A DNA stretch of 64,000 nucleotides from an uncultured Pontibacter sp. (GTDB lineage: Bacteria; Bacteroidota; Bacteroidia; Cytophagales; Hymenobacteraceae): contig NZ_CANLZM010000012.1 of NCBI RefSeq assembly GCF_947495565.1, forward strand, positions 116,689 to 180,688, read 5' to 3'. The position numbers and the translations under genes are program-made. Positions 1-64,000 of the stretch are shown here, piece by piece. The notes under the pieces are model-generated. The model made no database searches. It saw nothing but the letters and a program-made list of their open reading frames with translations, and had not been told where the DNA came from. How positions within the stretch are numbered: position 1 is the stretch's first letter; every line of letters begins with the position of its first letter.

Positions 1-1
1 T

Positions 2-313
2 GGTGTGCCGACATGGCTTGCCCCAATCATGATTCCGGTGGAATTGATTGGTATCCTGACAAAGCCATTCTCTCTAATGGTTCGACTTTTTGCCAACATT
101 ACGGCTGGTCACATTATCATTCTGTCGCTTTTCAGCTTGATCTTTATCTTTAAAAGCATAGCTGTAGGTCCCTTAAGTGTAGCGTTTGCTACCTTTATGA
201 ACTTCCTGGAGTTATTCGTGGCCCTGCTGCAGGCATATATCTTTACCCTTCTTTCTGCTATGTACTTTGGTGGCGCCGTTGAGGAGCACGACCATGCAGA
301 AGATCATCATTAA
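2..313 (+). CDS. atpB: F0F1 ATP synthase subunit a (3' part; gene starts before the window)
   Basis: RLFANITAGH and FVALLQAYIFTLL motifs; first gene of the atp cluster. Confidence 0.97.
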   Translation, partial: GVPTWLAPIMIPVELIGILTKPFSLMVRLFANITAGHIIILSLFSLIFIFKSIAVGPLSVAFATFMNFLELFVALLQAYIFTLLSAMYFGGAVEEHDHAEDHH

Positions 314-350
314 TAGAATTTTATTTTTTTAACTATATATAACTATAACT

Positions 351-608
351 ATGTTGTTAGCAATCTTGCTTCAAGCTGTTTCTGAAGGCGCTGGTCTTGG
401 TATCATGGGTGCCGGTATTGGTGCAGGTCTAGTTGCCCTTGGCGCTGGTCTTGGTATCGGTCGCATCGGTGGTTCAGCTATGGAATCTATTGCTCGTCAG
501 CCTGAGGCTGGTGGCAAAATCCAAACTGCCATGATCATTTCTTCTGCACTTATCGAGGGTGTAACCCTGTTTGGTGTGGTAGTATGTCTTCTGATCGCTA
601 TCGCTTAA
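351..608 (+). CDS. atpE: ATP synthase subunit c
   Basis: Gly-rich helix, ARQPE loop, conserved Glu in ALIEG. Confidence 0.98.
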
Positions 609-764
609 TTACTTTATATTAAAGTAACAAGCTAACATGCTTTTATTGATCTCACGTCTGGGCGTATGGCCCAGACGATGAGGTTAAAACATAGTTCAGA
701 TTATAGTTAGAGGCAGCCAACGTGGCTGCTTAAAAAGTATTTAATACTCAACCTTCATAAAAAA

Positions 765-60556: not shown

Positions 60557-61927
60557 ATGAAAAAACAGATTAGCCTGCTAATAGCCATACTTACCTTTTG
60601 CGGTACAAGCTATGCGCAGGGGCAGCAGGAGGCGATGCGCTTCAGCCTGCAGGAAAGTATAGATTACGCCCTGCAGCACCGCGCCAGCCTGCAGGCCACC
60701 CGCAACGAGGAGCGAAGCGCCAAAGCCAGGGTAGGCGAGATACGCGCCATGGGCCTGCCGCAGATAGACGCTACTTTGGATGCAGGTGATAACTTTGTAC
60801 AACAGCAGAGCTTTTTGCCGGCAGAGTTTTTCAACGACCCTGACGACCCTAATTCGCCGCAGCCAGGTACTTTTGTGCCTGTTACTTTTACACCAGCTTA
60901 TACCAGCAACGCCACTATTACGGCGAGCCAGCTGCTATTTGACGGCTCTTATCTGATTGGGCTGAAGGCGGCTAAAACCTATACAGAGCTATCGCGCAAA
61001 ACCACTGCGCAGAGTGAGATTGAGGTGGCAGAGCAGGTGAGCAAAGCCTATTACGGCGTGTTGGTGAGTGGTGAGCAAATAGAGTTGCTGGAGCAAAACA
61101 TCACACGCCTCGACACGCTGCTGTTTCAAACCCGCATTATGTTTGAAAACGGTGTGGCCGAGAAATTGGACGTAGACCGCCTGCGTGTGCAGCTGAATAA
61201 CCTGAAAGTGGAGCAGCAGAAAACAGAGCGCCTGCTGCAGCTGAGCGAAAACCTGCTCAAGTTCCAGATGGGGTTGCCTCAGAAACAGCCTGTGCTGCTT
61301 ACCGATAAGCTGGCTGAGGTAGACGTAGACATGAGCCAGCTGCATCCGCAAAACTTCAACTACAGCAACCGCATAGAGTATTCTCTCCTGGAAACACAGC
61401 AGAACCTTGCCGAACTGGACCTGCGCAACATAAACTCGGGTTATTTGCCAAAACTATACTTAAATGCGCGCTACGGTTATAACGCGGCCAGTAACGAGTT
61501 TAAAGAGATTACAACTACAAGCAATTACCTCGAATATGGTTTTGTTGGCGCACAGCTCAGAGTGCCGATTTTTGATGGTTTGCGCAAGCACTACCAGGTG
61601 CAGCAGGGTAAAATCAGGCTGGAAAACACAAAGCTGGGTTTCGAGACGCTGCGCCAAAGTATAGACCTGGAGCTGGAGCAGGCATCCACAGAACTCACGA
61701 ACGCCCTGGATGTGCTGAAGGCGCAGCAGGAGAACCTGGCACTAGCCGAGGATATCGCTCGCGTGGCGAAGATCAAGTTTCAGGAGGGCGTAGGTACAAA
61801 CCTGGAGGTGGTAACCGCCGAGACAGACCTGCGTCAGGCGCAGACTAACTACTACGCCGCCATGTACGATGCCCTCATTGCGAAGGTAAACCTGGAGAAA
61901 GCTACCGGGACACTACTGACAAAATAA
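60557..61927 (+). CDS. TolC family outer-membrane efflux protein
   Basis: Signal peptide; LPQI/LPKL and PIFDG repeats; operon context. Confidence 0.93.
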   Translation: MKKQISLLIAILTFCGTSYAQGQQEAMRFSLQESIDYALQHRASLQATRNEERSAKARVGEIRAMGLPQIDATLDAGDNFVQQQSFLPAEFFNDPDDPNSPQPGTFVPVTFTPAYTSNATITASQLLFDGSYLIGLKAAKTYTELSRKTTAQSEIEVAEQVSKAYYGVLVSGEQIELLEQNITRLDTLLFQTRIMFENGVAEKLDVDRLRVQLNNLKVEQQKTERLLQLSENLLKFQMGLPQKQPVLLTDKLAEVDVDMSQLHPQNFNYSNRIEYSLLETQQNLAELDLRNINSGYLPKLYLNARYGYNAASNEFKEITTTSNYLEYGFVGAQLRVPIFDGLRKHYQVQQGKIRLENTKLGFETLRQSIDLELEQASTELTNALDVLKAQQENLALAEDIARVAKIKFQEGVGTNLEVVTAETDLRQAQTNYYAAMYDALIAKVNLEKATGTLLTK

Positions 61928-61961
61928 AACTATCGAAAAACCAACCTTACTACTACCAACC

Positions 61962-63113
61962 ATGAACCGAATCATAGCAATCGCATCCTTTGCATGTATA
62001 CTTGGCTTGGCCTCTTGCGGCGGCGGCACCGATAAAAAGGCGCAACTGCAAAAGCTGAAGGAGCAGCAGGCAAGCCTACAGGAGCAGATAGAAGAACTGG
62101 AGGCCGAGCTGAAAGCTGAAGGCAAAACAGTAGCAGCGCAGCAGAAAACAGTGCCTGTGTCAGTAACGGCGCTGGAGCAGGATACCTTCCGGCATTACCT
62201 GGAGGTGCAGGGCCGCGTGGATTTTACACAGAACGTAATGGTGAGCGCCAAAGTGCCGGGTGTGCTTACAAGTATGCGCGTGGAGCGCGGCGATCGTGTA
62301 AGTAAAGGGCAAACCATGGCTACCATCGATGCGCAGGTGCTGCAACAGAACATAGCCGAAGTGAAAACCCGCCTCGACCTGGCAAACATTGCATTTGAGA
62401 AGCAGCAGAACCTCTGGAACCAAAAAATAGGAACAGAGATGCAGTACCTGACGGCCAAAAACAACAAGGAGGCACTGGAGCGTAACCTGGCAACCCTGCA
62501 GCAGCAGCGGGATCAGTACAATATCAAAGCACCTATCAGCGGGGTGGTAGATGAGGTAAAACCGAATGCCGGAGAAGCTGTGTCGCCGGGGGTGGGTATT
62601 ATTCGGGTAGTTAACCTGCAGGACGGCAAAATAGTGGCCGAAGTATCGGAAGCTTACCAAAGCAAGATCAGCAAAGGCGACAAGGCCGTGGTGTACTTCC
62701 CGGACCTGAAGAAAGAGGTGACAACAAATGTAGAAGTGGTAAGCAACTTCATTGACCCAACTAGCCGCACCTTTACCGTAGAGCTGCGCCTGCAGAACGG
62801 CAGCGACATTACACTTCGCCCAAACATGGTGGCTGTAGTCCGCATCCAAGACTATGAAAATAAAGGCGTAGTGACCTTGCCGGTAAACCTGGTGCAGAAA
62901 GACGAGAAATCCAGCTATGTGTATGTTGCCCAGAAAAAAGGAAACGCCTATGTGGCCACGCGCAAGGAAATAGAGACAGGCATGAACTATGGGGGCACGG
63001 TGGAGGTGCTCAGCGGTTTGGCTGCAAATGATAAAGTGATTACAGCAGGCTACCAGAGCGTGAACGAGGGGCAGCCGGTGGTGTTTGCGGAAAGCAGCCT
63101 GACCCAGAAGTAA
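61962..63113 (+). CDS. RND efflux periplasmic adaptor (lipoprotein)
   Basis: Lipobox LASC; G..VSKGQ, IKAPISGVV, IDPTSRTF, LRPNM. Confidence 0.94.
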   Translation: MNRIIAIASFACILGLASCGGGTDKKAQLQKLKEQQASLQEQIEELEAELKAEGKTVAAQQKTVPVSVTALEQDTFRHYLEVQGRVDFTQNVMVSAKVPGVLTSMRVERGDRVSKGQTMATIDAQVLQQNIAEVKTRLDLANIAFEKQQNLWNQKIGTEMQYLTAKNNKEALERNLATLQQQRDQYNIKAPISGVVDEVKPNAGEAVSPGVGIIRVVNLQDGKIVAEVSEAYQSKISKGDKAVVYFPDLKKEVTTNVEVVSNFIDPTSRTFTVELRLQNGSDITLRPNMVAVVRIQDYENKGVVTLPVNLVQKDEKSSYVYVAQKKGNAYVATRKEIETGMNYGGTVEVLSGLAANDKVITAGYQSVNEGQPVVFAESSLTQK

Positions 63114-63132
63114 TACCTTAAAGTATAAAACT

Positions 63133-64000
63133 ATGAAACAGTTTAAGCCAACCAGTTGGTCGATCGATAACAAGACCAGTATCTATATCATCACCATCAT
63201 CATTACGCTGGCGGGTATTTTCTCCTACATCAACCTGCAGAAAGAGAACTTCCCGGACATCGTAATCCCGACGATGTTTGTGAGCACCATTTACCAGGGT
63301 ACCTCGCCCTCGGATATGGAGAGCCTGGTAACGCGGCCTATAGAGAAAGAGATCAAAGCAATTTCGGGTGTCAAGAAAGTTACCTCCAACTCCATTCAGG
63401 ACTTCTCTATGGTGGTGGTGGAGTTTAACACAGATGTGGAAGTAGCGGATGCAAAGCAGCAGGTAAAAGACGCCGTGGACAAAGCGCGCACCGACCTGCC
63501 TACCGACTTAACAAGAGAGCCGGATGTGCAGGAAGTAAACTTCTCGGAGTTTCCGATCATGTACGTGAACGTGTCGGGTAATTATAGCCTGGACCAGCTG
63601 AAGAATTACGCCGAGGAGTTGCAGGATCGCTTTGAAGCCTTCCCGGAGATTACGCGTGTGGATATGGTGGGCGCTCTGGATAAAGAGGTACAGGTAAACG
63701 TAGACCTCTACAAAATGCAGGCTGCCCAGGTTACCTTCAACGACATTTCGACAGCCATTGCCCGCGAGAACATGACCATTTCGGGGGGTAACGTAACGGT
63801 AGGCGAGGCTAAGCGCTCGGTACGTGTGGCAGGCCAGTATACTGACCCTGAGAAAATCGGCGATATTGTGCTGCAATCCTTGGGCGGTGCCAATATAAAG
63901 CTAAGAGACATTGCAGAAGTGAAGGAGGGGTTTGAGGAGCAGGAGAGCTATGCGCGCTTAGGCAACGAGCCGGTTATCACACTTAACGTCATCAAGCGCA
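63133..64000 (+). CDS. RND efflux permease, AcrB family (5' part; runs off the window; not in the ORF track)
   Basis: Own translation MKQFKPTSWSIDNKTSIYIITIIITLAGIFSYINLQKENFPDIVIP...; open frame to the end. Confidence 0.93.
   Translation, partial: MKQFKPTSWSIDNKTSIYIITIIITLAGIFSYINLQKENFPDIVIPTMFVSTIYQGTSPSDMESLVTRPIEKEIKAISGVKKVTSNSIQDFSMVVVEFNTDVEVADAKQQVKDAVDKARTDLPTDLTREPDVQEVNFSEFPIMYVNVSGNYSLDQLKNYAEELQDRFEAFPEITRVDMVGALDKEVQVNVDLYKMQAAQVTFNDISTAIARENMTISGGNVTVGEAKRSVRVAGQYTDPEKIGDIVLQSLGGANIKLRDIAEVKEGFEEQESYARLGNEPVITLNVIKR

Follow-up and report, generated by a model that had tools for sequence, protein, structure and literature searches.

To our knowledge, hyper-abundant genomic tags of known mechanism are limited to two proteobacterial families, where they are read by type IV pili. 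Both the DNA uptake sequences (DUS) of Neisseriaceae, which form dialects, and the uptake signal sequences (USS) of Pasteurellaceae, with their Hin and Apl types, are short non-palindromic words that occur about once per kilobase or more densely, in both orientations and without polarity; they lie in coding DNA in all frames, are densest in 3' and convergent spacers, are depleted in recently acquired DNA, and differ by one or two letters between related species, with sites changing in place. Here we describe a word resembling them in all these respects, AAGTATA with its complement TATACTT (hereinafter, the tag), in an uncultured Pontibacter sp. (Bacteroidota). A stretch of 64,000 nucleotides (the window; C12:116689–180688, on contig NZ_CANLZM010000012.1) was analysed together with the entire 4.52 Mb genome (44 contigs, 48% GC); the AtpA protein encoded in the window is 92% identical to AtpA of Pontibacter species. 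The tag differs from DUS and USS in that its core comprises 7 bp rather than 9–12 bp, its density is about double, spaced inverted terminator pairs are lacking, the genome yielded neither a type IV pilus nor a ComP-like receptor, and the host belongs to Bacteroidota.

The highly iterated palindrome HIP1 of cyanobacteria (GCGATCGC) shares with the tag a density of one copy per 0.3–1 kb, site conservation in excess of the neutral expectation, replacement by variant words in some lineages, and absence from foreign DNA. Yet HIP1 is palindromic, quasi-periodic and read by two orphan methyltransferases, whereas the Pontibacter tag is asymmetric, hence not a palindrome of the HIP1 type, and is distributed in a Poisson-like manner, in a genome where screening for catalytic motifs found no core orphan DNA methylase. 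HIP1 is still debated after 30 years, and a role in transformation is now suspected (PMC13756078). A different kind of likeness is seen in Riemerella (Flavobacteriaceae), from the same phylum, whose transformation is pilus-independent and needs ComEC, DprA, ComF and RecA, as well as CarboxypepD_reg-like outer-membrane, fimbrial-like and helix-hairpin-helix proteins, R. columbina favouring its own DNA (PMC8459023, PMC7965970). Riemerella has the ComEC/DprA/ComF core and no type IV pilus; the present genome shares this core, and no type IV pilus was detected in it. In Riemerella, however, no over-represented tag has been reported.

AAGTATA is the top-ranked 7-mer of the window, with 76 copies in this orientation and 61 as TATACTT, that is, 137 by exact count, against approximately 8.4 expected for independent, identically distributed bases and 7.3 for a first-order Markov model; the observed-to-expected ratio (O/E) is hence 16–19 (18.8 for the first-order model). 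An earlier note, made from the sequence of the window alone, had tallied about 75 and 60 copies and an approximately 15-fold excess, an observation that these counts confirm; all twelve coordinates quoted there carry the tag, within 1 bp, and the open reading frame (ORF) of bshC indeed holds exactly the nine copies ascribed to it. In the genome as a whole we observed 8,111 copies, or one per 558 bp, with O/E of 12.1, 14.4, 8.9 and 4.8 for Markov models of order 0, 1, 2 and 3, respectively. The extended word AAGTATAAA occurs 2,695 times (O/E 59). The 105 same-letter permutations of AAGTATA have a median genomic count of 655, and the only other abundant ones are shifted overlaps of the tag.

Genes were called crudely (ATG starts, at least 60 amino acids; 3,556 ORFs, 81% coding). 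When synonymous codons were shuffled inside each gene, so that amino acids and codon usage were kept, the tag was still over-represented both in the sense orientation (2,480 observed vs. 466; 5.3×) and in the antisense one (2,748 vs. 339; 8.1×), and permutation of whole codons left an excess of 9–11×. Intergenic DNA contains 2,782 copies, compared to 241 expected from its own base composition (11.5×). The earlier note had named three outcomes that would speak against a genomic tag, these being disappearance of the excess under a codon- and dinucleotide-preserving null, equal frequency of permuted 7-mers, and confinement of the excess to the window; none of the three was observed.

Loci of the relatives, sampled as fragments of approximately 20 kb, cover 15 other Pontibacter species, 16 with the present genome. 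In ten of these species, AAGTATA is likewise the top 7-mer, with O/E of 10–48 (P. rufus, P. rugosus, P. mangrovi, P. mucosus, P. anaerobius, P. chitinilyticus, P. litorisediminis, P. flavimaris, P. oryzae and P. sp. MBLB2868). Three species (P. lucknowensis, P. sp. HSC-36F09 and P. roseus) use AGGTATA instead (O/E 15–31, logo C-A-GGTATA-G-C), and P. sp. Tf4 uses AACTATA(G), which is found there 108 times within 24 kb (O/E 43). Both AAGTATA and AGGTATA are only weakly enriched in P. harenae, and the same holds for one Hymenobacteraceae metagenome-assembled genome (MAG). Nothing comparable was seen in the loci of Rufibacter, Adhaeribacter, Dyadobacter and Pedobacter or in about 150 further Bacteroidota loci. 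Three one-letter dialects are thereby distinguished among the 16 Pontibacter genomes. An alignment query with BshC added no further Pontibacter species among the matches listed, and there is no exact-protein match on record that would provide near-identical strains for polarising gains and losses. We conclude that the tag is a genuine lineage-specific genomic tag.

The fate of individual sites depends on the dialect. We aligned the Pontibacter loci to the present genome and pooled the results, with background 7-mers providing the expectation for site conservation. In same-dialect species with DNA identity of at least 78%, 151 of 243 sites are exactly kept vs. 69.6 expected (62% vs. 29%, P = 2e-27). 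At 72–76% identity within the same dialect this excess is gone (P. rufus, 15% vs. 13%; P. chitinilyticus, 23% vs. 20%), and hence individual sites are not permanently conserved. In the AGGTATA species, AAGTATA is kept at 5 of 93 sites against the background of about 16% (P = 0.002), and an exact AGGTATA is aligned at ten of these sites vs. about 2% expected (P = 2e-5). In Tf4, none of nine sites is kept, and four of the nine have become AACTATA vs. about 1.5% expected (P = 7e-6). These conversion tests are small (93 and 9 sites, respectively). Thus, within a dialect the sites are actively maintained, and once the dialect has switched, they undergo active loss or in-place conversion; these observations call for a reader that is sequence-specific and for a directional force, be it drive or selection. 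Comparable behaviour of sites has reportedly been described in studies of DUS dialects and USS types.

The density of the tag rises as the constraint falls: from 1.4 copies per kb in coding DNA to 3.7 in divergent (promoter-only) spacers, 4.2–4.9 in tandem ones, and 7.4 in convergent (terminator-only) spacers. The tag fills positions that selection tolerates. The stop codons of 205 genes are overlapped by a tag, in the form xAAGTATAA, TAAGTATA or TAAAGTATA, and within 0–25 nt past the stops there are approximately 6–7 tags per kb, without a sharp peak. A fixed placement relative to genes was considered and rejected, the only tendencies being this broad post-stop excess and the opportunistic use of stop codons. 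Inside genes, the earlier note had described the tag as accommodated in every frame and in both orientations, and this holds genome-wide, the coding contexts being KY[KN], [KE]VY, xSI, YT[LFS], [LV]Y[FL] and xIL; the share of codons located within tags is 11% for ATA and AGT and 9% for TAT.

Along the genome the distribution is bimodal. Most 10-kb bins contain 15–27 copies, and contiguous blocks contain 1–6. The O/E in the tag-poor blocks is about 1.7–3.2 (6.5 in one block on contig C19), the corresponding values being 15 for the core and 18.8 for the window. The blocks listed in Table 1 were identified by reading their largest translated ORFs, with no family search behind the assignments, and most look like mobile or defence islands. 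From the bimodal distribution and the low O/E in the islands, it follows that tags accumulate gradually in resident DNA, wherever selection permits this. The cluster around rpoBC is also tag-poor, the most constrained, highly expressed genes evidently resisting the accumulation of tags. Foreign DNA can be picked out sharply in this genome by its tag density.

The core of the motif, AAGTAT[A>G], has sharp edges, and the information content is below 0.01 bit at more than 3 bases outside the core on either side. The bias of the flanks towards A, proposed in the earlier note, is seen at positions -1 (42%), +1 (56%, with T at 6%) and +2 (43%). AAGTATG has 3,580 genomic copies, with O/E of 6.2 in the core vs. 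1.8 in the islands; since this parallels the main word, the tag can be described as AAGTATR, at approximately one copy per 367 bp of the core genome. The remaining words that differ from the tag by one letter are enriched about 1–2.2×, and none is depleted. Strand polarity is weak. With strands assigned by GC skew in bins, as a proxy for the orientation relative to replication, 53.4% of copies lie on the G-rich strand (3,266 vs. 2,854), the share being 52–55% on each large contig; both orientations are used, as the earlier note had held. In the core, counts per 10-kb bin are Poisson-like (index of dispersion, 0.94), with only weak spectral peaks and no strong periodicity. Genome-wide, successive copies have no preferred spacing, barring a few tandem copies and the overlapping palindrome AAGTATACTT, which occurs at 214 sites.

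The machinery that might read the tag was sought by tblastn of E. coli K-12 proteins against the genome, with Pfam applied to the candidates. ComEC, DprA and ComF are all present (Table 1), ComEC as a weak tblastn match backed by the Pfam domains; a regular expression for ComEA-like helix-hairpin-helix proteins was uninformative. In the neighbourhood of comEC, the translated sequences include nothing like the outer-membrane or fimbrial genes of Riemerella. Neither Dam, nor an m5C methyltransferase motif, nor a core orphan DNA methylase was found by tblastn or by the catalytic-motif screen of the crude gene calls. In the latter screen, DNA methylases occurred on the islands only, with the addition of one core Type IIG/IIL enzyme; other core proteins with the (D/N)PP(Y/F) motif were discarded as RNA or protein methyltransferases or unrelated. 

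We tentatively suggest, as a plausible reading held with reservation, that AAGTATR works like a DNA uptake sequence, that is, as a lineage-specific self-DNA tag kept dense by a directional, reader-dependent process. The putative reader would act on incoming conspecific DNA at the step of binding, uptake or recombination, possibly via a pilus-independent Bacteroidota pathway comprising ComEC, DprA, ComF and outer-membrane components. Tag-bearing alleles would then be preferentially fixed, which would constitute molecular drive, and the tag could also bias exchange towards kin. The sequence-level hallmarks of DUS and USS are seen here, namely hyper-abundance, both orientations, 53% polarity, independence of codon usage, depletion in mobile DNA, dialects, and in-place conversion.

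Several observations weigh against this suggestion. ComEC, DprA and ComF are near-universal, and hence their presence is only permissive. HofQ, HofB, HofC, HofM and PpdD had no match below E = 0.1, although with E. coli queries only this search had limited sensitivity; no secretin, prepilin N-terminus or homolog of a known DUS receptor was detected in the genome. Since Riemerella transforms without pili, the missing pili set the present case apart from the Neisseria type yet leave an uptake mechanism possible. The 7-bp core is shorter and less discriminating than the known uptake sequences of 9–12 bp, and genome-wide there is no preference for spaced inverted-repeat terminator pairs, which are typical of Neisseria DUS. 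In the literature we found no report of competence or sequence-biased uptake for Pontibacter or any other Hymenobacteraceae. Finally, all sequence-level features are equally predicted by a repair or gene-conversion bias and by the binding density of a chromosomal protein. The proposal of a tagging system made in the earlier note is supported in part, by the sequence-level hallmarks of the DUS/USS type. Any of the uptake, methylation and nucleoid mechanisms that it listed may apply; a type IV pilus and a cognate methyltransferase were both looked for without success, and the core Type IIG enzyme does not track the dialect.

Under a repair or gene-conversion bias, possibly coupled to methylation as has been suggested for HIP1, a tag-binding protein would steer mismatch or heteroduplex correction to the tag strand, and the tag would have no role in uptake. 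No repair system known to us enriches a non-palindromic word 12–60×. Such a bias predicts the same filling of free sites, maintenance, dialect conversion and slow build-up in foreign DNA, and most of the one-letter neighbours are enriched 1.5–2.2×, as decay followed by re-conversion would give. On the other hand, a Vsr-type mechanism converting a single one-mismatch neighbour needs a depleted word; there is none (AAATATA has O/E of 1.0–1.6), and this variant was rejected. Nor does the search for methylases described above provide a candidate, as the single core enzyme with an asymmetric site does not follow the dialect. HIP1 itself has been tied to methyltransferases, and the debate continues (PMC4390886, PMC13756078). 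On balance, we consider the repair bias unlikely. A rather improbable account, to about the same degree, is that the tags are binding sites of an abundant nucleoid-associated, condensation or segregation protein, with selection acting on the overall density rather than on single positions. It would agree with sites kept above the background in close relatives, with dialects as a result of protein–site co-evolution, and with the lack of the tag in mobile DNA, which could mark self vs. non-self. It fits less well with the loss of conservation at approximately 72–76% DNA identity even within a dialect, with the Poisson-like placement, which shows no spacing, phasing or relation to genes except for avoidance of constraint, and with the highest-expressed conserved operons being nearly tag-free; moreover, per-site selection over approximately 8,000–11,500 sites would be very weak.

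The other explanations are much less probable. A recognition site of a resident restriction–modification system is suggested by the core Type IIG/IIL enzyme, since enzymes of this kind read asymmetric words of 6–7 bp; by Pfam, this one combines an Eco57I methylase, a TaqI_C specificity domain and MmeI_Mtase, and nine Pontibacter species have a homolog of its gene, which is located in core DNA rich in tags. However, while its N-terminal 900 amino acids are 75–95% conserved across Pontibacter, the specificity region (amino acids ~900–1200) is only 12–25% identical to that of P. anaerobius, P. flavimaris, P. mucosus and P. mangrovi, all with the same tag, and homologs are also found in Algoriphagus, Cyclobacterium and other genera that lack the tag. 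Hence, the enzyme is not the reader, and, restriction–modification sites not being normally enriched in host genomes, we regard this explanation as very unlikely. As an observation in its own right, the specificity region has been swapped between species and looks like textbook shuffling of target-recognition domains. Chi sites, recognised by AddAB or RecBCD, and the FtsK-orienting polar sequences (KOPS) or architecture-imparting sequences (AIMS) are likewise short, asymmetric, enriched in the core and rare in foreign DNA, but their orientation closely follows replication, and their enrichment is modest, far below the 12–60× of the tag. We therefore agree with the earlier note in dismissing a polar signal of the Chi or KOPS type as extremely unlikely, because the polarity is only 53%. 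An artefact of composition or codon usage, or copies of miniature inverted-repeat transposable elements (MITEs) or repetitive extragenic palindromes (REPs), might be suspected as O/E approaches 1 for the highest-order Markov model; this happens because the sub-words themselves consist of tag copies. The excess over the synonymous shuffle (5–8×), the whole-codon permutation and the intergenic composition, and the enrichment of a different word in sister species of similar composition, all argue against an artefact, whereas the loss of flank information within two bases of the core means that the tag is not a MITE or REP element; the probability of this explanation is practically negligible.

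Returning to the window, we list examples of individual sites in Table 1, including those in bshC, which are in both orientations and in several reading frames. The two tags of the perfect inverted pair probably lie next to each other by chance, in a spacer dense in tags, as the inverted spacing has no genome-wide preference. The fused palindrome consists of two opposite overlapping tags.

Table 1. Tag sites in the window and loci elsewhere in the genome. Coordinates without a contig label are those of the window; all loci with a contig label lie outside it.
Feature	Location	Strand	Remarks
Tag AAGTATA/TATACTT	1..64000	76 +, 61 -	plus 51 AAGTATG/CATACTT; 2–15 copies per 4 kb throughout
Coding tag K-Y-K (AAG TAT AAA)	3848..3854	+	commonest sense frame-0 context genome-wide, 418 cases
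Stop-fused tag TAAagtataaa (13099–13109) and second tag (13136–13142) in 3' spacer	13099..13142	+	
bshC ORF	25631..27397	+	nine tags: 26030, 26145, 26294, 26479, 26613, 26687, 26779, 26806, 27112
Fused palindrome AAGTATACTT	36100..36109	.	others at 37886, 47793, 56309
Perfect inverted tag pair GTTTATACTT-tgctgc-AAGTATAAAC	38431..38458	.	
Stop TAA within TAAGTATA	42329..42356	+	another tag 19 nt downstream
ComEC	C5:113863–115968		weak tblastn match; Pfam Competence 3e-62 + DUF4131
DprA	C4:106641–107762		8e-38
ComF	C7:66124–66810		7e-13
Type IIG/IIL enzyme, 1,322 aa	C4:331086–335054		DUF7149 + DUF7814 + Eco57I + TaqI_C; MmeI_Mtase by Pfam
Conjugative element: TraG-like ATPase, CzcA-like efflux pump, multicopper oxidase, metal resistance	C16:10000–100000		tag-poor
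Defence/restriction island: Type IIG enzyme, OLD-like ATPase, UvrD-like helicase, helicase-methylase	C14:60000–110000		tag-poor
Prophage: tape-measure and tail proteins	C2:140000–180000		tag-poor
RHS/YD-repeat toxin contig	C23		tag-poor
rpoB–rpoC–fusA–secY cluster	C2:320000–350000		10 tags in 30 kb, O/E 1.8

In some other Cytophagales we observed unrelated hyper-abundant words. The loci of Fibrella and Fibrisoma montanum contain GGTACGT, and TGGGTACGT exceeds the first-order Markov expectation 95×; in Larkinella the word is CGGTTTT, with GGCGGTTTT at 19×; and the Hymenobacter cavernae loci have the palindrome ACCTAGGT (64×). Across the Cytophagales, tagging of genomes may be a widespread trait, with independent specificities. 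Repeats of other kinds also occur: the locus of an Ekhidna MAG has 30 CCCCCCC words in 21.6 kb, which are poly-C tracts, and in that of a Cytophagales MAG, what is probably a tandem repeat gives approximately 20 copies of CTGCTAA/CAGTTAG within 6.4 kb. Separately, several MAG records titled 'Janthinobacterium lividum' and 'uncultured Bifidobacterium / Bifidobacteriaceae' encode AtpA proteins 76–86% identical to that of Pontibacter in a Bacteroidota-like context, and these bins are probably mislabelled or contaminated.

Full-text literature searches found no earlier description of such a motif in Bacteroidota, in line with what the earlier note had stated, nor did they turn up methylome data for Pontibacter. 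Pontibacter provides a third, independent case of a hyper-abundant tag and, owing to its three one-letter dialects, a clean natural experiment. The species with different dialects are culturable, closely related and non-pathogenic, and in-place conversions are visible. The contrast between the dialects makes the question of drive vs. selection directly testable, and the reader protein could be found by comparison of genomes across dialects or by pull-downs with the AAGTATAAA and AACTATAAA oligonucleotides. In a broader and somewhat more doubtful reading, Pontibacter might have sequence-specific recognition of self-DNA free of type IV pili, and so, independently and with words of their own, might Fibrella/Fibrisoma, Larkinella and some Hymenobacter; outside Proteobacteria it would be the first system to resemble uptake sequences, and its reader would be a Bacteroidota protein whose specificity has been switched by single letters at least twice in one genus. 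Should the tag indeed bias uptake, this would bring to light the step at which specificity arises in the pilus-independent transformation of Bacteroidota.

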